In this document: piece after piece, positions 7,722-57,221 of the stretch
Numbering within the stretch: position 1 is the first letter of the stretch
Layout: every line of letters starts with the position of its first letter
The notes under the pieces: model-generated
Databases searched by the model: none
What the model was told of the DNA's origin: nothing
What the model saw: the letters and a program-made list of their open reading frames with translations, nothing else
Assembly: GCA_963721165.1 (NCBI GenBank)
Contig: CAVRIE010000009.1
Span: 19,800-83,799 of the forward strand
DNA length: 64,000 nt
Origin: an uncultured Actinomycetota bacterium
Lineage (GTDB): Bacteria > Actinomycetota > Actinomycetes > Propionibacteriales > Nocardioidaceae
Direction of reading: 5' to 3'
Translations under genes and position numbers: made by a program

Positions 7722-8941
7722 ATGCGGTCCACATCTGGTCGCCGCACCCTCCGGTCCGCGGTGTCGGTCGGCCTCGCCGTTTTCGTCGTCGGTGTCACGA
7801 GCGCTGCCTACCCAGAAGGCAACGAGAACTCAGGCTCATCATCGACAGCCTCGAACGGCTCCGCCGGCAACTCGTATATCGATGGCACCCAGCCCGGCGG
7901 CGACCTCCAAACGACTGACGGCACACCAACCGGGGAACAGCCAACTGACGGGGTGTCGCCTCCGGATGTGTCTCCACCGGTCGTGGCTCCACCGGTCGTG
8001 TACTCCGCCGGTCGTGTCTCCGCCTGTTGTGACTCCGCCTGTTGTGAGCTCCGCCGGTCGTGTCTCCGCCTGTTGTGACTCCGCCGGTCGTGTCTCCGCC
8101 TGTTGTGACTCCGCCGGTTGTGTCGACCACGTCCGACTGGAACCTCAATTTCACCTACGGCACGACCAACAACGGTGTCACCACGAACGACAGTTTCAAC
8201 AACGGCAGCTTCTGCAACGGGTCGTCCTCGGACTGTCGGTGCAACGACAGTTCTCACTGTGACGGCTCGAGCTGGCGGTGCGATAGCGGGAGCTTCTGCA
8301 ACGGGTCGTCCTCGGACTGTCGGTGCAACGACAGTTCTCACTGTGACGGCTCGAGCTGTGGGTGCGATAGCGGGAGCTTCTGCAACGGGTCGTCCTCGGA
8401 CTGTCGGTGCAACGACAGTTCTCACTGTGACGGCTCGAGCTGTGGGTGCGATAGCGGGAGCTTCTGCAACGGGTCGTCCTCGGACTGTCGGTGCAACGAC
8501 AGTTCTCACTGCGACGGCTCGAACTGCCGGTGCGACAGCAACAGCGCGCACTGCGACCACTCGAACTGCCGTTGCAACAACGACAATCACTCGTCGGACG
8601 GCAACTGCGGCTGCGACCGGGACACCGGCAACTCGACGGTGACGATATCGCCGGTCGCCACCCCGACAACGGTGCCCGTCACGGTGCCTGTCACGACGCC
8701 GGTCACGGTGCCTGTCACGACGCCGGTCGAGACGACCGTTCCGGCGGCTCCCGTGGTGACCCAGGCCGCCGTGCCGGCCGTCGTGGCAGCTCCCGTGGCA
8801 GCGCCTGCGCCCGCGGCTGCCCCGAGCCAGGGGACGCTGCCCAGGGTGGGTGCCGACTCGAAGGATGACCTGTTGGCCTTCGGAGGTGCCGCGATGCTGC
8901 TCACGGGGATCGTGCTGCTGCGGCTCCAGAGAAGGACCTAA
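7722..8941 (+). CDS. Secreted Cys-rich repeat protein with LPxTG-like (LPRVG) sorting signal; two +1 indels in the VSPPV repeats
   Basis: Signal peptide MRSTSGRRTLRSAVSVGLAVFVVGVTSAAY; Pro/Val repeats; Cys-rich repeats; Thr/Pro/Ala stalk; LPRVG + hydrophobic helix + RLQRRT. Confidence 0.8.
7953..8119 (+). repeat. 15-bp tandem repeat encoding V[S/T/A]PP[V/D] x11
   Basis: gtgtctccgcctgtt / gtgactccgccggtc units; two units are 16 nt (7998, 8044). Confidence 0.9.
8204..8539 (+). repeat. 84-bp tandem repeat x4 encoding GSFCNGSSSDCRCNDSSHCDGSSCGCDS
   Basis: Unit starts at 8204, 8288, 8372, 8456. Confidence 0.95.
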
Positions 8942-9265: not shown

Positions 9266-10295
9266 ATGCATTGCTTACGTACTCGCGGGCATACGTTCCG
9301 CGCTGTCGCATCGGTCGGAATGGCCGTGTTCGTGCTCGGAGTCACCAGTCCGTCCTACGCCGACGACGGCAACGGCTCCCATGGGAACTCGTCTCACCAG
9401 GAGAAGTGGGCCGGCGAGAACTCGGCGGCGGCAACTGGGACGGCGGGAAGTCCGGCGGCGACAACTGGGATGGGGGAAGTCCGACGGCGGCAAGGAGTCC
9501 GGCTGGGACGGGGGAGAAGTCCGGCGGCGACAACTGGGACAGCGAGGAGTCCGGCTGGGACGGGGAGAAGTCCGGCGGCGACAACTGGGGCAGCGAGGAG
9601 TCCGGCTGGGACGGCGAGAAGTCCGGCGGCGACAAGGAGTCCGGCTGGGACGGGGAGAAGTCCGGCGGCGACAAGGAGTCCGGCTGGGACGGGGAGAAGT
9701 CCGGCCGTGACAAGTGGCACGGAGAGGACCACGGGGACAAGGACCACGGGGACAAGGACCACGGGGACAAGGACCACGGGGACAAGGAGCACGGGGACAA
9801 GGACCACGGGGACAAGGAGCACGGGGACAGGGACGCACGGGGACAAGGAGCACGGGGACAAGGAGCACGGGGACAAGGACCACGGGGACAAGGACCACGG
9901 GGACAAGGAGCACGGGGACAAGGAGCACGGCGACAAGGACCACGGGGACAAGGACCACGGCGACAAGGAGCACGGCGACAAGGACGACGAGGAAGAGTGC
10001 GAGTGCCCGAAGGAGGAGAAGCCTGAGAGAGGAGGTCCCGCCCGCTGAGCAGCCTCAGGAGCAGCCCGCTCCGCCCGAGGCCGTCCCGGCTGAGCAGCCC
10101 GCGCCTCCTGCGGAGGTCCCTGCCGCGCCGGCCGTCGCACCGGCCCCCGAGGCAGCGCCTGCCCCGGCCGCAGTGGCTCCGACCCAGGCTCTGCCGTCGG
10201 TCGGTGCCGACCCGGTGGACGAGGCCCTGGCGTTCGTAGGGGCCGGGATGGTGCTCTCGGGAGCCACCCTGCTGTGGCGTCGCAGAAGGGCTTGA
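9266..10295 (+). CDS. Secreted His/Trp/acidic repeat protein with LPxTG-like (LPSVG) sorting signal; several indels within the repeats
   Basis: Signal peptide MHCLRTRGHTFRAVASVGMAVFVLGVTSPSYA; ESGWDGEKSGGD repeats; HGDK[DE] repeats; Pro/Ala/Glu stalk; LPSVG + hydrophobic helix + WRRRRA. Confidence 0.8.
9430..9717 (+). repeat. 39/51-bp repeats encoding ESGWDGEKSGGD(K / NW[D/G]SE)
   Basis: gagtccggctgggacggggagaagtccggcggcgac repeated. Confidence 0.85.
9718..9985 (+). repeat. 15-bp tandem repeat cacggggacaagga[c/g] encoding HGDK[D/E] x17 after a leading HGED
   Basis: Counted directly; the unit at 9820-9835 is 16 nt. Confidence 0.95.
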
Positions 10296-21766: not shown

Positions 21767-22975
21767 GCTCGCCTGCCGCGAGGACGTTCGCCGCGACCTC
21801 GCGGAGCGGGTCGAGAAGCTGCTCTCGTCGTGCCCGCCTGCCTCCACGGACCGGCTGGAGTTCCTCCGCGCCCGCTTCGACGCGGGGCTCGCGTGGGTGC
21901 ACTTCCCCGAAGGGCTCGGCGGGCTCGGGCTCGCGCGTGGCTTCCAGCAGTACGTCGAGCAGCTGCTCGCCGAGGCCGGGGCGCCGGACAACGAGCCGCG
22001 CAAGATCGGGATCGGCCTCGGCATGGCCGCACCCACGATCCTGGCCTTCGGCACCGAGGAGCAGAAGCAGCAGTTCCTCCGCCCGTTGTGGACCGGCGAG
22101 GAGGTGTGGTGCCAGCTGTTCAGCGAGCCCGGCGCCGGGATCCGACCTCGCCGCGCTCGCGACGCGGGCGGTCCGTCACGGCGACGGGCCCGACGCGACC
22201 TGGGTCGTGAACGGGCAGAAGGTCTGGACGTCGAGCGCCCACAAGGCACAGCGGGCGATCCTCGTGGCGCGCACCGACCCGGATGCGCCCAAGCACAAGG
22301 GCATGACGTACTTCCTCGCCGACATGACCGACCCCGGCGTCGACGTACGACCGTTGCGCCAGCTCACCGGCGAGGCGGAGTTCAACGAGGTCTTCCTCTC
22401 CGACGTACGCATCCCCGACGCCCACCGCCTCGGCGAGGTAGGCGACGGCTGGAAGGTCGCGAACGCCACGCTGATGAACGAGCGTGTCGCGATCGGCGGG
22501 CACGCCGCACCGCGCGAGAGCGGGATGATCGGCCGAGGTCGCGGAGACGTGGCGTTCACGCCCGGAGCTGCGCACGCCCGGGATGCATGACCGGCTGATG
22601 TCCGGCTGGGTCGAGTCGGAGGTCTTCCGGCTGACCGGCGCGCGCCTGCGGCAGAAGCTCGCGGTCGGGGCGCCGGGCCCCGAGGGCTCCGCGATGAAGC
22701 TGACCTTCGCCCGGCTCGCCCAGGAGCTCAGCGGGCTCGAGGTCGAGCTGCTCGGCGAGGACGGCCTGCGTTACGGCGACTGGACGATGACCCGGCCCGA
22801 GCAGGTCGACTTCACCGGTCGCGACGCCGGCTACCGGTACCTCCGTGCCAAGGGCAACTCCATCGAGGGCGGCACCTCGGAGATCCTGCGCAACATCGTC
22901 GCGGAGCGGGTCCTCGGCCTGCCGACCGAGCCGCGCGTCGACAAGGACATCCCGTGGAAGGAGATCCCGCGATGA
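21763..22975 (+). CDS. Acyl-CoA dehydrogenase; frameshifts near 21775, 22140, 22545
   Basis: [19 protein letters not shown] + [45 protein letters not shown]. Confidence 0.85.
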
Positions 22976-24225
22976 GCTCGGACCTCAACCTGCTCTACAC
23001 CGACGTCGAGGACGACCTGCGCTCGTCGGTGCGGGACCTGCTCTCGTCGCGTTGCCCTGCTGACGCGGTGATCGCGATGTACGACGGCGACCGCTCGCTC
23101 GTCGCGCCCCTGTGGCGGTCGCTGGCCGTCGAGCTCGGGCTGGCGGGGCTGCTCGTGCCGGAGTCCTTCGGCGGTGCCGGGGCTTCTGCTCGGGAGGCGG
23201 CGGTCGTGCTCGAGGAGCTCGGCCGGTTCGCCGCGCCGGTGCCGTTCCTGACCAGCTCGGTCGTCGCCACCGCGGTGCTCGGCGGTGGGTCGCCTGCCGG
23301 TTCCGTGCACGTGCACGGTTTTGACGGCGGAGCGGCCGGATCGCGCGTCGATTCCGGGCAGGTGCACGATTCTGGCGAGGGAGCGGCCGGATCGCGCGTC
23401 GATCCCGTGCATGTGCACGATTCTGGCGAGCTGGGTGCCTCCTTGCTCGCGGAGTTGGCGGCGGGGGAGCGTACGGCGGCCCTGGCGGTGCCGCTGGCGG
23501 CGAGCCCCTGGTCCTTCGAACCCACTGTCACCGCGTCAGGCGATGCGCTGACCGGCCGGGTGACCTCGGTGGCGGGTGCGCTGGAGGCGGATGTGCTGCT
23601 GGTGCCGGTCGCCGTGGACGGGGGCGGCTCGGCCGGGGTCGAGGTGCGCGCGGTCGACGCTGCGGACGCCGAGATCACGCCGGTGACCTCCCTCGACATG
23701 ACGCGCCAGGTCGCCGACGTGTCGTTCGACGGCGCGTCGTCGCGGGTCGTCGTACCCGCAGACTCCGGCGCAGCCGCGGTGCGGAACGCCCTCCAGGTGG
23801 GAGCCGCGCTGATGGCGTCCGAACAGGTCGGTGTCGCGCAGTGGTGTCTCGACACGACGGTGGCGTACCTCAAGGAGCGGCGCCAGTTCGGCCGCGTCGT
23901 GGGCGGCTTCCAGTCGTTGAAGCACCGCCTCGCGGACCTGTACACGCTGGTCGAGCAGGCTCGTGCCGCAGCGCGCTACGCCGCAGCCACGGTCGCGGAG
24001 GGCGACCCGGACCAGGAGGTCGCGGCTTCGGTGGCCCAGGCGTACTGCTCCGACGTCGCCGTGAAGGCGGCCGAGGAGTGCGTGCAGCTGCACGGCGGGA
24101 TCGGCATGACCTGGGAGCACCCGGCGCACCTGTACCTCAAGCGCGCCAAGGCGGACCAGATCGCCTTCGGCACGCCGGGGGCGCACAGGGCCCACCTCGG
24201 CGAGCTCGTCGACCTGCCCGCCTGA
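22972..24225 (+). CDS. Acyl-CoA dehydrogenase with about 50-aa repeat-derived insertion
   Basis: LEELGR, SLDMTR, ERRQFGRVVGGFQSLKHRLAD, VQLHGGIGMTWEH. Confidence 0.9.
   Translation: MSSDLNLLYTDVEDDLRSSVRDLLSSRCPADAVIAMYDGDRSLVAPLWRSLAVELGLAGLLVPESFGGAGASAREAAVVLEELGRFAAPVPFLTSSVVATAVLGGGSPAGSVHVHGFDGGAAGSRVDSGQVHDSGEGAAGSRVDPVHVHDSGELGASLLAELAAGERTAALAVPLAASPWSFEPTVTASGDALTGRVTSVAGALEADVLLVPVAVDGGGSAGVEVRAVDAADAEITPVTSLDMTRQVADVSFDGASSRVVVPADSGAAAVRNALQVGAALMASEQVGVAQWCLDTTVAYLKERRQFGRVVGGFQSLKHRLADLYTLVEQARAAARYAAATVAEGDPDQEVAASVAQAYCSDVAVKAAEECVQLHGGIGMTWEHPAHLYLKRAKADQIAFGTPGAHRAHLGELVDLPA
23303..23430 (+). repeat. In-frame copy of the 51-bp GTGCACGATTC repeat family
   Basis: Palindrome ccgtgcac|gtgcacgg (23303-23318); units start at 23311, 23362, 23413; homologous to 56246-56413. 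Confidence 0.85.
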
Positions 24226-38474: not shown

Positions 38475-38487
38475 GGCACCGGGCCCG

Positions 38488-38569
38488 TAGAACATGCACT
38501 GGGCCGCTCCCGGAGGGACATCCCCGCCTGACGCCGTACTGCGCCGGGACGACTGCATGTTCTGCGGGC
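38488..38569 (+). repeat. 82-bp direct repeat, left copy, with inverted ends AGAACATGCA...TGCATGTTCT
   Basis: Matches 39511-39593 with 2 substitutions and 1 indel. Confidence 0.92.
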
Positions 38570-38600
38570 CCGGGCCAACTCAGCCGCTGCGGGCCCGGGT

Positions 38601-38620
38601 CCTGTGGACGACGGGATGCG
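38601..38620 (+). promoter_or_regulatory. Motif cctgtggacgacgggatgcg upstream of DUF559 gene 1
   Basis: 18/20 identical to 55185-55204; about the same distance to the start codon (51 vs 50 nt). Confidence 0.65.
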
Positions 38621-38651: not shown

Positions 38652-39554
38652 GTGAGACCGGAACAGGCGCTCGTCAGGCTCGGCGGGATTGCAGACACGA
38701 AGACGCTCAGGCGCTTCGCGTCACGAAGACAGATACGGAAAGCCGTGGCCAGCGGCGCGATCGTCCGGGACGCCCGTGGACGCTACTCGCTTCCCTCCGC
38801 GTCTGAGGCCCTCAGAGCCGCCAGTCGGCTGAGCGCTGTGGTGTCGCATGTGAGTGCTGCCCAGGTCCACGGGTGGGAGGTCAAGCATCCACCGGCACTC
38901 CCCACGGTGACCGTGCCTCGCAATCGCCGGGTCGCACCTGAACGGCGAGAGGGGGTGGACGTCAAGTGGGCGCACCTCGCTCCACAGGAGGTTCTGAGCG
39001 GGCGTGTCACGTCGTACGGCCGGACGGTCATGGACTGCGCCAAGCACCTGCCGTTCGACGAGGCGCTCGCCGTCGCGGACTCGGCACTGAGGCACGGCAA
39101 CGTGACGAGGTCATGGCTCATCGAGCTGGCCGGCCGGATGCCCGATCGCCACCGCGAACGCTGCCTTCGCGTTGCCCTCGCTGCAGACCGGCGTGCGGCC
39201 AACCCTTTCGAGTCCGTGCTGCGGGCGATCGGGCTCGACATCCCGGAGCTCGTCCTGGAGCCGCAGGTCGTGATCTCGGGCGAGGAGTTCTCGGTCCGCC
39301 CGGACCTCGTCGACGAGAGGCGAAGGGTCGCCGTGGAGGCTGACTCGTTCGAGTGGCACGGCAAGCGGAAGGCGCTCCACGCGGACTGCCATCGCTACAA
39401 CGCGCTCGCCCTCGACGGCTGGCTCGTGCTGCGGTTCAGCTGGGAGGACGTGATGTTCCAGCCCGACTACGTGCGGCGATGTCTCCTCATGGCCTCCCGC
39501 CGCGTGCCCTTAGAACATGCACTCGGCCGCTCCCAGAGGGACATCCCCGCCTGA
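38652..39554 (+). CDS. AbiEi-N / DUF559 (Vsr-like PD-(D/E)XK) nuclease-domain protein
   Basis: N-terminal wHTH (GAIVRDARGRY); C-terminal RPDLVD..RVAVEADSFEWH..D..RYN.L..GWLVLRFSWEDV. Confidence 0.85.
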   Translation: MRPEQALVRLGGIADTKTLRRFASRRQIRKAVASGAIVRDARGRYSLPSASEALRAASRLSAVVSHVSAAQVHGWEVKHPPALPTVTVPRNRRVAPERREGVDVKWAHLAPQEVLSGRVTSYGRTVMDCAKHLPFDEALAVADSALRHGNVTRSWLIELAGRMPDRHRERCLRVALAADRRAANPFESVLRAIGLDIPELVLEPQVVISGEEFSVRPDLVDERRRVAVEADSFEWHGKRKALHADCHRYNALALDGWLVLRFSWEDVMFQPDYVRRCLLMASRRVPLEHALGRSQRDIPA

Positions 39555-39593
39555 CGCCGTACTGCGCCTGGGACGACTGCATGTTCTGCGGGC
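39511..39593 (+). repeat. 83-bp direct repeat, right copy; overlaps the last codons and stop of the DUF559 gene
   Basis: tagaacatgcactcggccgctcccagagggacatccccgcctgacgccgtactgcgcctgggacgactgcatgttctgcgggc. Confidence 0.92.
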
Positions 39594-39647
39594 TCGGCAA
39601 CCAGCCCGGCAACCAGCCGGCAACCCGGGGCCGGCAGCCCGGCGGGC

Positions 39648-54136: not shown

Positions 54137-54934
54137 ATGGCCGAAGTTCACCAGGCCGCCTCTTCGACGGCGGTCGACTTCGTGTCGGCCTATGCCACTG
54201 CGGCCGCCGAGCTCGTCGAGGCCATCCCGTCCTGCGACATGGCGGCCCGCGTCCCCGCCTGTCCGGGCTGGTCGACGTACGACCTCCTGGTCCACGTCGG
54301 CAACGTCCACGCCTGGGCAGCGACGATCGTGGAGACCGGCCGGGAGGCGCCTGAGCAGGACGACCGGCCCGGGTCGCGCCGCGCGAAGTCGGTCGCGCGG
54401 TGGTACTCCGGCAAGGCCGAGGACCTCTTCCAGGTGCTCCGCGCCGCCCAGCCGGGGGACCCGTGCTGGACCTTCTCGGCCGGCCACTCGACCAAGGCCT
54501 TCTGGCCACGGCGGCAGACCCACGAGACCCTGGTGCACCTCGCGGACCTGCGTCAGGCGGCAGGGCGTACGGCGGACATCCCGGCGCCGTTGGCCGCCGA
54601 CGGGGTCGCCGAGGTGCTCGAGGTGTTCCTGCCGCGGATGCACGCCCGCGGCCGACCCGCCAGGCTGGACGCGCAGGTCCTCCTCCACGCGCACGACACC
54701 GGCGACGCGTGGTTGCTGACCCCCTTCCGCGGGGAAGGCCCACCCTTGGTTCGGCGCATCGGGCTGAGCGGCGGCCCCGACTCGCACGTCCAGGACCTGG
54801 ACCGGGTCAGCGCGCCCGCGGCCGACCTCATGCTGCTGCTCTGGAAGCGACTGCCCGTCGACCACCCCGGACTGACCCTCGACGGCGACCGCGACCACAT
54901 CCTCGCGTTCCTCACCTCCCCGCTCACCCCCTGA
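54137..54934 (+). CDS. Mycothiol-dependent maleylpyruvate isomerase family (DinB/MDMPI)
   Basis: VPACPGWSTYDLLVH, RRQTHETLVH..D, ADGVAE. Confidence 0.85.
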   Translation: MAEVHQAASSTAVDFVSAYATAAAELVEAIPSCDMAARVPACPGWSTYDLLVHVGNVHAWAATIVETGREAPEQDDRPGSRRAKSVARWYSGKAEDLFQVLRAAQPGDPCWTFSAGHSTKAFWPRRQTHETLVHLADLRQAAGRTADIPAPLAADGVAEVLEVFLPRMHARGRPARLDAQVLLHAHDTGDAWLLTPFRGEGPPLVRRIGLSGGPDSHVQDLDRVSAPAADLMLLLWKRLPVDHPGLTLDGDRDHILAFLTSPLTP

Positions 54935-55062
54935 CACTCGCCCCCGCGCCGCCCCCGCCCGGTCGCCCGCCCGCCGCCCGCCCGTCCCCGCCCTGCCCGG
55001 CCCGCCGCCGCGGCCGCCCGCTGGCCCGCATGGCCGCGCCACGGCGACCGCCGCTCTGCCTG

Positions 55063-55143
55063 GCAAGAATCGTGCATGTGCGAGGTTCTTACGGCCGGAC
55101 GGCCGCTGGCGCCGCAAGGATCGTGCACCTGCACGATCCTTGC
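55063..55143. repeat. 51-bp repeat family, left cluster (two minus-strand units + palindrome)
   Basis: gcaagaatcgtgca at 55063, gcaaggatcgtgca-cc-tgcacgatccttgc at 55114-55143. Confidence 0.88.
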
Positions 55144-55184
55144 CGCCCGACTCGCCTGAACCGGCACGCGCCCAGGGGGTCGGG

Positions 55185-55204
55185 CCTGTGGATGACGAGA
55201 TGCG
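55185..55204 (+). promoter_or_regulatory. Motif cctgtggatgacgagatgcg upstream of DUF559 gene 2
   Basis: 18/20 identical to 38601-38620. Confidence 0.65.
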
Positions 55205-55234
55205 CGACGCCGCACCCCTTGGCAACCTCGTCGA

Positions 55235-56189
55235 ATGACCACGTTGAAGGCCTCGTCCGTCGTCCTCGTCACCACGCCTCGAGACTCGCCGACCGTTCAC
55301 ACGCGCCGACGCGCTGGCGGCAGGGATCCCGGCACGAGACCTTCGCGGCTCGAAGTTCCGGCGGATCTTCAACGGCGTCTACATCGACGCGCGCGTGCCC
55401 GACCATCCGCTGATTCGCGCCGAAGCGGCGCTGCTCGTGCATCCCCCGACCGCGTTCGCCAGCCACGTCACGGCTGCGCGGGTGCACGGACTGCCTGTGC
55501 CCACCCACCACGCAGAGCATGTGACGGTGGTGTCAGCCGCCGACCGGAGCAAGCGCGCCGGGATCAAGTGCCACGTCGCCGGCACTGACGACGTCGTCGA
55601 GATCAGCGGTGTCCGTGTCTCCGGACCGCATCGGATGTTCGTCGAGCTCGCGCCCATGTTGTCGTTGGTCGACCTCGTCGTGGTCGGTGATGCTCTGGTG
55701 CGGCTCGGGAAGACCACACCGGCGGCTCTCGCGGCGGCGTGCGAGCGGAGCGACGCGCGGCATGCGACAGAGGCACTTCGCGCGGCCCGCTACGTCCGGA
55801 AGGAGGTCGACTCCCCGATGGAGACCCGGCTGCGCATGCTGATCGTGCTCGCCGGCCTGCCCGAGCCAGAGGTCAACCACAAGATCCGCGACGAGCACGG
55901 ACGGGTGACCCGACGCTTCGACCTGAGCTATCCCAGCGTCCGGCTGATCGTGGAGTACGACGGCCGCCAGCACGTCGAGATCCAGCAGAACTGGACGTCG
56001 GACCTCGAGCGCCGTGAGGAGTTCGACGACTCGGGCTGGCGGATTCTCGTCGTGACGAGCGACGGCATCTACAAGGACCCCGCCAAGACCGTTGCGCGCG
56101 TGCACCGGGCGCTTCGCAGTCAGGGGTGGCGCGGCCTGCCGACACGAACCTCCGACGCCTGGCGCCCCCACTTCCGCGGCCGGAGCTGA
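55235..56189 (+). CDS. DUF559 (Vsr-like) nuclease-domain protein; frameshift near 55280
   Basis: PFTRADALAAG...FRRIFNGVY; DSPMETRLR; RFDLSY...IVEYDGRQH...DLERRE...GWRILVVT. Confidence 0.85.
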
Positions 56190-56236
56190 CCCGCGCTCGG
56201 TCGAGCCGCGGAAGGCGCGGGGCGCCGGGGCGAAAC

Positions 56237-56413
56237 ATCGTGCACGTGCACGATTCTTGCGCCGCGAGCGACCGGATCGGCGTCGAACCTTCGCAGGTGC
56301 ACGATTCTTGCGCGGCGAGCGACCGGATCGGCGTCGAACCTTCGCAGGTGCACGATTCTTGCGCGGCGAGCGACCGGGTCGGCGTCAAACCTTCGCACGT
56401 GCACGATTCTTGC
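56237..56413 (+). repeat. 51-bp repeat family, right cluster: 18-bp palindrome + 3 full units + 1 partial
   Basis: atcgtgcac|gtgcacgat (56237-56254); units start at 56246, 56297, 56348, 56399. Confidence 0.95.
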
Positions 56414-56462
56414 CGCCGGGTGCGGGCCGCCGGGCGCATGCACCCGGCCAGGCCGCGCGGGG

Positions 56463-57221
56463 TCAGCGGCCCTGGTTGGCGACTGCCTGGATCGCCTCGG
56501 CGGCGGCCTCGGGGTCGAGGTACTGGCCGCCACGCTCGAGCGGCCGCATGTGCTGGTCGAGGCGGTACACGAGCGGGATCCCGGTCGGGATGTTGAGACC
56601 CACGACAGCCTCCTCGCTCATGTCGTCGAGGTGCTTGACGAGGGCGCGGAGCGAGTTGCCGTGCGCAGCGACGCAGACCGTCTGGCCGGCGCGGAGGTCG
56701 GGGACGATCGCGTCGTACCAGTAGGGGAGCATCCGCTCCACGACGTTCGCGAGGCACTCGGTGCGCGGCATGATCTCGTCGGGGAGGTCGGCGTAGCGGC
56801 TGTCACCGGTCTGCGACCACTCGTCGTCGTCGTCGATCGGCGGGGGCGGGGTGTCGTACGAGCGGCGCCAGAGCATGAACTGCTCCTCGCCGTACTTCTC
56901 CATCGTCTCCTTCTTGTTCTTGCCCTGCAGCGCGCCGTAGTGCCGCTCGTTGAGGCGCCAGGAGCGCTTCACCGGGATCCAGTGCCGGTCGCACTCGTCG
57001 AGGGCGAGCTGGGCGGTGCCGATCGCCCGGCGCAGCACGGAGGTGTGGAGTACGTCGGGAAGCAGACCCGCCTCGGCGATCAGCGTGCCGCCGCGGATCG
57101 CCTCGGCGCGGCCCTTCTCGGTCAGGGGTACGTCGACCCAGCCGGTGAAGAGGTTCTTCGCGTTCCAATCGCTCTCGCCGTGGCGGAGCAGGACCAGGGT
57201 GTACGGGGCCTCAGCACTCAT
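56463..57221 (-). CDS. gpmA: 2,3-bisphosphoglycerate-dependent phosphoglycerate mutase
   Basis: [55 protein letters not shown]. Confidence 0.96.

Follow-up and report, generated by a model that had tools for sequence, protein, structure and literature searches.

Introduction

To our knowledge, the association of repetitive extragenic palindromic (REP) sequences with their REP-associated tyrosine transposases (RAYTs) is the only established, vertically inherited partnership between a repeat and an enzyme, and it is proteobacterial. For the dispersed palindromic repeats of high-GC Gram-positive bacteria, we know of no cognate enzyme. AbiEi and Rv2827c, from the type IV AbiE toxin–antitoxin systems, bind pairs of 23-bp inverted repeats located in their own promoters (PMC7319586). 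The homing endonuclease I-Bth0305I, of the EDxHD family, is an example of a Vsr-like fold at work in a selfish, site-specific nuclease (PMC3239194). Here a 64-kb window (C9:19800-83799; all coordinates without a contig name refer to the window) was analyzed from a genome denoted G000, which comprises 18 contigs, 4.36 Mb and 70% GC. The names of homologs place G000 in Nocardioides/Nocardioidaceae. Between the genes for MDMPI and gpmA the window contains gene g1, which encodes a DUF559 nuclease domain fused to an AbiEi-like module and is framed on both sides by palindromic repeats with a 51-bp period (family A). A preliminary description of this DNA had proposed a RAYT/REP-like logic for g1 and its repeats. 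The association of gene and repeat is real, specific and general, and g1 is one member of a large family of single-gene cassettes in Actinobacteria. What is constant in this family is a gene framed by its own palindromes, with dispersal of the palindromes as an occasional extra.

A literature search on DUF559 yielded nothing that links this domain to flanking repeats; the nearest items were one row in a table of inversion targets (PMC9881135) and I-Bth0305I. No published description was found of an AbiEi-Vsr cassette framed by palindromes.

Comparison with Described Systems

The cassettes resemble the proteobacterial systems in which a RAYT is paired with REP doublets (REPINs), together termed REPtrons. 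The gene is single-copy per type, chromosomal and mostly vertical in descent, it is framed by its own palindromic repeats, and several gene-repeat pairs occur per genome. Dispersed units are doublets in which a spacer separates two inverted palindromic halves, and they favor intergenic sites after stop codons and form species-specific blooms. Plasmids and phages essentially lack the gene: a search of them returned four weak plasmid or chromid matches and one phage match, all at no more than 35% identity. The cassettes differ from REPtrons in the enzyme, which joins an AbiEi-like winged helix-turn-helix to a Vsr-like PD-(D/E)XK domain in place of an HUH Y1 transposase. They differ further in that many AbiEi-Vsr members have no dispersed population and in that a DnaA-box-like motif is part of the unit.

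The N-terminal ~175 residues of the protein match AbiEi by hidden Markov model (HMM) and by fold, and pairs of inverted repeats lie 5' of the gene, as they do at PabiEi and Prv2827c (PMC7319586). Unlike the AbiE systems, the cassette has no AbiEii (DUF1814) partner, and a nuclease domain is fused instead; g1 is the single gene between the MDMPI stop (54934) and the gpmA stop (56463), which leaves no room for a second open reading frame. The repeats also occur 3' of the gene and dispersed through the genome, and the palindromes are 51-52 bp apart, compared with 3-13 bp in AbiE operators. The C-terminal domain superposes on the Vsr-like catalytic domain of I-Bth0305I, whereas the DNA-binding modules of the two proteins are unrelated. 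Unlike I-Bth0305I, g1 is not located within an intron or intein and splits no recognition site; it is free-standing and intergenic, and the presumed target is intact on both sides.

Architecture of the g1 Cassette

The features of the cassette are as follows.

Positions 55063-55143, no strand assigned: left family-A unit, an 81-bp double palindrome with four half-sites, defined by motif sites and a full-length nhmmer match at C9:74862-74942 (62 bits).
Positions 55186-55196, plus strand: CTGTGGATGAC, a DnaA-box-like motif conserved 5' of the gene family.
Positions 55223-55228, plus strand: CAACCT, a candidate -10-like hexamer located 6 nt 5' of the ATG, read from the sequence.
Positions 55235-56189, plus strand: gene g1, a fusion of an AbiEi-like winged helix-turn-helix module with a Vsr/DUF559 nuclease, identified with Pfam (DUF559, MTES_1575), PADLOC (AbiEi), an AlphaFold (AF2) model and Foldseek.
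Positions 56233-56413, no strand assigned: right family-A array, a ATCGTGCACGTGCACGAT palindrome followed by four forward 51-bp units, defined by motif sites, Tandem Repeats Finder (TRF) and nhmmer (C9:76032-76212).

The 14-mer TGCACGATTCTTGC, allowing up to 2 mismatches, is found at 9 sites in the window versus 0.23 expected. The sites to the left of g1 are 55063(-), 55114(-) and 55130(+), the last two of which form the left palindrome, and the sites to the right are 56247, 56298, 56349 and 56400, all (+). Two further sites, 23363 and 23414, fall within a coding sequence. The right palindrome occupies 56237-56254, and TRF reports a period of 51 with 3.5 copies and 94% matches at 56242-56418. 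The two palindrome centers of the left unit are separated by 51 bp. The arrangement given in the preliminary description, with two inverted units and a palindrome on the left and a palindrome and four forward units on the right, was therefore confirmed by the motif sites and TRF. Chance origin of the family-A sites was ruled out by shuffles and by the 400-gene control presented below. A CRISPR-like array was ruled out, as the 37-bp "spacers" are themselves repeated. No RNA family from Rfam matched the region 54800-56600 at E <= 1.

The g1 Protein and Its Frameshift

The protein is ~315 amino acids long. The PF04480 (DUF559) scores of 28.3 bits for g1 and 22.5 bits for g2, a paralog in the same window, both pass the cut-off of 20.6; the PF18741 score of 29.6 is below its cut-off of 38.2. 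The PADLOC profile for AbiEi matches residues 17-172 of g1 with E = 3.3e-11. The AF2 model of the g1 protein has a pLDDT of 89.5. When this model was searched with Foldseek, the N-terminal ~185 residues matched AbiEi (6y8q, E = 5e-4, probability 1.00), and the C-terminal ~100 residues matched the catalytic domain of I-Bth0305I (3r3p, TMt 0.80, probability 1.00) and the DUF559 structure 3hrl (TMt 0.71). The profile search of g1 against I-Bth0305I gave a weak match with E = 0.058. Residues E192, R196, D225, E236, D238, D252 and R255 are invariant over 41 sequences including g2, which is 26% identical to g1, an invariance that indicates constraint on the nuclease site across the family. In the model the C-terminal domain has a Vsr-like fold, and the conserved acidic residues are those of a predicted nuclease site.

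A known transposase, insertion sequence (IS) or phage gene was ruled out because the only matches in Pfam, NCBIfam and PHROGs are to DUF559, MTES_1575 or, weakly, nucleases. The profile searches returned no match to an HUH Y1 transposase of the IS200/IS605 type. The enzyme is of the Vsr-like PD-(D/E)XK kind, as had been proposed, and not an HUH transposase.

The identification of g1 as a DUF559 gene stands, and its reading frame in this assembly is interrupted. Alignment of the DNA with the metagenome locus L101 locates one extra G at ~55262, approximately nine codons after the ATG. L101 encodes P0001, a 97%-identical g1 protein from a farmland metagenome that begins MTMSKASSVSPSPALETRRPF, and this copy is flanked on both sides by the same family-A repeats. 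The frame of the ATG at 55235 terminates at 55588, and the homologous frame extends over 55248-56189. The homologous frame is open from 55248 with no possible start codon before 55395, because the extra G places the ATG in another frame. From the alignment, g1 in this assembly appears to have been inactivated recently by the 1-nt insertion.

Association of Gene and Repeat

The left and right flanks of each gene were compared with one another by BLAST at a threshold of E <= 1e-4. Similarity between the two flanks was found for 2/400 (0.5%) random genes of G000, for 5/7 paralogs in G000, for 16/30 homolog loci in 40 relatives and for 9/27 loci sampled across the phylum. Flanking of unrelated genes equally often, the outcome that the preliminary description had named as evidence against its proposal, was not seen among the random genes. 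A strict palindrome finder detected little at the distant loci, where flank-to-flank BLAST was more informative. The gene family is present in 36/121 sampled Actinomycetota genomes, with up to 13 copies in each.

A protein tree of 15 close homologs contains three clades, and these correspond to three palindrome types. The types are GCAAGAATCGTGCA paired with TGCACGATTCTTGC (with the relatives GGCCACAACCGTCCA and TGGATGGTTGTGGCC), GTCGTTCCCGTCCA paired with TGGACGGGAACGAC, and CAACAGGTCAC paired with GTGACCTGTTG. The predicted co-variation of DUF559 clades with the flanking repeat sequence is thus observed. A CA-NN-TG center is retained in all palindrome types. In all three clades, most loci have 51 or 52 bp as the first- or second-ranked lag between direct repeats in their flanks. 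The spacing corresponds to about five helical turns and has persisted while the sequence itself was completely replaced, which suggests that the protein imposes the geometry.

Upstream Motif and Putative Promoter

The preliminary description had noted a promoter motif common to both DUF559 genes of the window. CTGTGGAYGAC is present at 55186 upstream of g1 and at 38602 upstream of g2, where the feature is as follows.

Positions 38602-38612, plus strand: CTGTGGACGAC, the DnaA-box-like motif of the second cassette, from the sequence.

The sequence CTGTGGAYRAC, exact or with 1 mismatch, appears 77-128 nt 5' of the RRPFTRA codons in 18/30 homolog loci, among them paralogs at 30% identity and loci from another family within the order. 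The same type of sequence (CCCTGTGGACAAC, CCCTGTGGACAAA, CCTGTGGATCAAC and CTGTGGAGAAC) is found in clusters at the dnaA promoter and between dnaA and dnaN in G000. The motif cannot be distinguished by sequence from a local DnaA box, and a role for DnaA is conceivable on this likeness. The genome contains 24 occurrences of CTGTGGAYRA[C/G] versus 30 for the reversed control, so the motif is no rarer; its significance lies in its position and conservation 5' of the genes and in its identity with the boxes of the dnaA region. The position of CAACCT 6 nt 5' of the ATG may reflect a leaderless mRNA. Similar hexamers (CAAAGT, CACAGT, AACAGT and CACGCT) are located ~7-10 nt 5' of the likely start in loci L004, L005, L007, L009 and L013.

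Outside the window, at C8:76600-76800 of G000, a dense group of TCCACA/TGTGGA boxes (GTCCACAGG, GTCCACATT, CTCCACAGG, TTATCCACAGCC and GTGGACAGC) is contained within 100 bp. This group is far from dnaA (C10:493-495 kb); it may represent another DnaA-box cluster or the degraded promoter of a cassette.

Dispersed Units and the Insert in a Coding Sequence

The basic dispersed unit, as found in nine dispersed copies, is an 81-82-bp doublet of two imperfect ~30-bp palindromes with centers 51 bp apart. An nhmmer model identifies ~27 distinct family-A loci in G000, and the proposed dispersal beyond the cassette is borne out. Tandem arrays with the 51-bp period are located at C9:96583-97017, C5:421405-421639, C10:192430-192665 and C17:96490-96666. 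Most family-A loci lie ~50 bp after stop codons, chiefly between convergent genes, and the spacer between gpmA and MDMPI is such a site. Two pairs of units at unlinked loci are identical at 78/82 and 76/82 positions, including the non-palindromic interiors, and their flanks are unrelated; the whole doublet is therefore copied. Inverted unit ends are present, and no target-site duplication is recognizable. The number of core sites is 28 in G000, 5 in G006 and at most 2 in each of the other 39 of 40 relatives, and family A is species-specific. At C5:440351-440395 of G000, a perfect run of heptamers, (CGCCGGT)6, lies directly beside a solo family-A unit.

One array lies within a gene.

Positions 23301-23444, plus strand: family-A array of ~144 nt with three units, in frame in an acyl-CoA dehydrogenase gene (22954-24225), from TRF and ortholog comparison.

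TRF reports a period of 51 and 2.5 copies at 23301-23430. The orthologs in G004, G015, G006, G042, G007 and G017 have no counterpart of this 144-nt in-frame insert, in agreement with the earlier statement that a copy at 23303 had invaded a coding sequence. At the same codon position, inserts are present in G013 (+96 nt, locus L060), G008 (+51, L065) and G022 (+15, L068), each with the palindrome type of its own species. The inserts in this loop of the enzyme have arisen either by insertions that struck one site repeatedly or by conversion, in situ, of an insert already present.

Occupancy of the gpmA-MDMPI Site

The site was compared in 27 genomes of the genus, across which gpmA is 85-94% identical. 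The states of the site are listed below.

Cassette in minus orientation: G000, G004.
Cassette in plus orientation: G006, G021, G003, G014, G005, G018, G042.
Degraded cassette: G013 and G011 (both minus), G015 (fragments in both orientations).
Solo double palindrome: G007, G023.
Empty site with spacers of 16-98 bp: G016, G009, G022, G017, G012.

The empty-site analysis called for in the preliminary description therefore shows that across the genus the site may hold a cassette in either orientation, a degraded cassette, a solo repeat or nothing. The DUF559 proteins encoded at this site are only 53-79% identical. Occupancy is scattered on the gpmA tree, which is weakly resolved and too weak for gains and losses to be counted. 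In this tree G000 groups with G006, whose cassette is of another clade and in the opposite orientation and whose protein is 60% identical to that of G000. Judged from these sequences, cassette replacement, and not only vertical descent, is suggested.

The Second Cassette and Other Paralogs

The second cassette of the window consists of the following features.

Positions 38485-38570, plus strand: left family-B unit of ~85 bp with 12-nt terminal inverted repeats, 95% identical to 39508-39594.
Positions 38652-39554, plus strand: gene g2, an intact paralog with AbiEi + DUF559 architecture (Pfam, PADLOC).
Positions 39508-39594, plus strand: right family-B unit, a direct copy of the left unit with 12-nt terminal inverted repeats, from sequence comparison.

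The last codons and the stop of g2 lie inside the right repeat. A third family-B copy is located at C10:354615-354705 of G000. The window thus contains two nuclease genes, each with its own repeat variant, as had been described. The relatedness of the cores TGCACGATTCTTGC (g1) and TGCATGTTCTGC (g2), which was also part of that description, is at most plausible.

A tblastn search of G000 identifies seven family members, g1-g7. Matching repeats are present on both flanks of g1, g2, g3, g5 and g6 (E from 5e-5 to 4e-36), and flanking inverted repeats are seen by eye at g4 and g7. The repeat is different for each paralog. Downstream of g4, in the region C10:137700-137760, lies a hairpin repeat of ~56 bp (GGAGCGCCGGAATCG...CGATTCCGGCGCTCC) with ~45 copies genome-wide at 85-97% identity. 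This hairpin repeat frames no DUF559 gene on both sides.

Additional Features of the Locus

One more feature lies next to the cassette.

Positions 54939-55035, no strand assigned: C-rich low-complexity tract, CGCCCCCGCC-like, ~7 copies, from TRF, between the MDMPI stop and the left repeat.

A C-rich tract like CGCCCCCGCC is also present 5' of the left repeat in L101. A second, slightly diverged promoter segment (GCCTGCGGATGACGAGACACGCGACGCCGCACC) is found 5' of the left repeat at L101:100-135 and appears to be left over from an earlier cassette or from an inversion. Elsewhere in the window, long tandem repeats occupy 8203-8578 and 9407-9993, with an 84-bp unit repeated four times at 96% identity and units of 15, 39 and 51 bp. 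These look like repetitive coding sequence, and they have no relation to family A. The 51-52-bp period of family A is near the 51-54-bp units of many mycobacterial interspersed repetitive unit-variable number tandem repeat (MIRU-VNTR) loci, a similarity of unit length.

Interpretation and Alternative Explanations

The explanation toward which we lean is that protein and palindromes form a cognate module: the AbiEi-like part of the protein would bind the phased palindromes, and the double-palindrome unit can multiply in the manner of a REPIN. The cassette consists, in order, of cognate palindromes, the DnaA-box-like motif, the AbiEi-Vsr gene and the cognate palindromes again. The protein most likely recognizes the palindromes that frame its own gene, as AbiEi-type winged-helix proteins bind paired inverted repeats. 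Palindrome centers 51-52 bp apart would allow cooperative binding on one face of the DNA, and the gene-proximal sites are probably operators and cassette boundaries. In G000 the cognate double-palindrome unit (~82-96 bp) has multiplied, REPIN-like, to ~27 mostly intergenic sites, tandem 51-bp arrays and one coding sequence. Once palindromes are bound, their cutting or nicking by the nuclease domain may trigger repair-mediated copying or homogenization of the units, and it may also drive cassette exchange, inversion or loss. That the nuclease drives multiplication of the units is a tentative proposal, and we rate it as doubtful.

Several observations weigh against a REP-like partnership driven by the enzyme. 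g1 is frameshifted in the very genome that has the largest repeat bloom. The expectation that repeat abundance tracks the gene holds in part: overall, genomes with intact clade-III genes show an enrichment of the clade-III palindrome (Mann-Whitney p = 0.005), but G011 and G015, whose cognate genes are degraded, still have 42 and 53 clade-III palindrome matches, and G004, with an intact 79% ortholog, has only ~3-5 dispersed copies. For families B, C and E, 0-3 copies lie outside the gene flanks, so dispersal is not constant in the family. A REPtron, by comparison, has tens to hundreds of dispersed repeats in its genome; family A has ~27 loci. Co-variation of flank and clade could arise partly from shared descent of the whole cassette. 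The left unit, as single-stranded DNA, is predicted to form two hairpins (z = -5.1), but unlike in REPtrons a hairpin substrate receives no support from covariation. Although 18/22 double changes are still paired, this result was dropped after the shuffle controls, in which 29-53 of 500 shuffles reach the observed values for the outer stem and 98-250 of 500 reach them for the local hairpins, neither being significant. The pairing is no greater than column conservation gives, which is more in keeping with recognition of half-sites in duplex DNA than with a mechanism that uses single-strand hairpins. Conserved half-sites account for the symmetry, and no single-strand hairpin intermediate needs to be invoked. 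From the RAYT/REP-like reading as first proposed, the framing, the clade-specific repeats, the dispersal and the copying of units are retained; the frameshifted copy, the repeats that accompany dead genes, the lack of covariation and the barely dispersed repeats of the paralogs count against it.

The AbiEi-type repressor fold in the N-terminal two-thirds of the protein leads to an operator-only account, since operator-type binding explains the gene-proximal copies without mobility. The gene would then be a single-chain AbiE-like module, a fused antitoxin-like repressor and nuclease that acts as a toxin or in defense and moves nothing. The palindromes would be autoregulatory operators together with a downstream looping or termination site, and the dispersed copies would stem from an unrelated or host process or be extra or decoy sites. 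The fold and HMM match are consistent with this account, as are the binding of AbiEi-family proteins to paired inverted repeats in their own promoters (PMC7319586), the absence of compensatory covariation, the confinement of the repeats of most paralogs to the gene flanks, the persistence of repeats where the gene is dead and the 51-52-bp phasing, which suits cooperative duplex binding. It leaves unexplained the near-universal downstream copy, the copying of whole 82-bp units to unlinked loci and into a coding sequence, and the species-specific blooms that match the palindrome type of the local gene. In addition, there is no AbiEii partner in a cassette that fills the space between MDMPI and gpmA, and PADLOC matches the AbiEi part only. 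This operator-only account is regarded as rather unlikely.

Some IS elements target REPs, and the nuclease gene might likewise have landed in a pre-existing REP-like cluster, its association with the repeats being one of position and not cognate. The preference of family A for spacers after convergent stops, such as that between gpmA and MDMPI, would suit such a hot spot, as would the solo units without a gene at the same site in G007 and G023 and the far more abundant hairpin family near g4. However, each paralog has a distinct repeat that is usually rare elsewhere, which counts against insertion into a common REP hot spot. The same repeat type is always present on both flanks, the repeat type tracks the protein clade across species at a syntenic locus, and flank-to-flank similarity is seen in only 0.5% of control genes. 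We consider insertion into a hot spot improbable. A programmed inversion switch, in which the flanking palindromes serve as recombination sites that flip the cassette on and off, is judged very improbable. It would accommodate the opposite orientations at the same locus between species, the G015 fragments in both orientations and the 14-fold enrichment of "DUF559 domain-containing protein" among predicted inversion targets (PMC9881135). There is, however, no recombinase nearby, the promoter motif flips with the gene so that expression would not be switched, and orientation differs between species and not within a population. Replacement may account for the orientations instead, given that the G000 and G006 proteins are 60% identical even though their gpmA genes group as sisters.

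Significance

If members of this family recognize and propagate their own palindromes, a function would be available for a large block of genes now annotated as "DUF559/hypothetical", and the species-specific repeat blooms and the in-frame repeat insertions in enzymes would be explained. The family would also supply natural sequence-specific nucleases in which co-varying pairs of protein and DNA can be read out. Since the protein and its candidate site adjoin, the question is directly testable. The AbiEi-Vsr cassettes could further be a second repeat-enzyme partnership that evolved independently beside REPIN-RAYT and extends across the Actinomycetota, in which a winged-helix-guided PD-(D/E)XK nuclease cuts its own phased palindromes, with its expression or access perhaps coupled to replication through the DnaA box. 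Such cutting would drive homogenization, turnover and copying of the ~82-bp double-palindrome units as well as inversion or replacement of the cassette; this wider proposal is possible, though we would not presently expect it to hold. If the nuclease does cut in this way, the cassettes would constitute a new class of domesticated or selfish DNA without a transposase.

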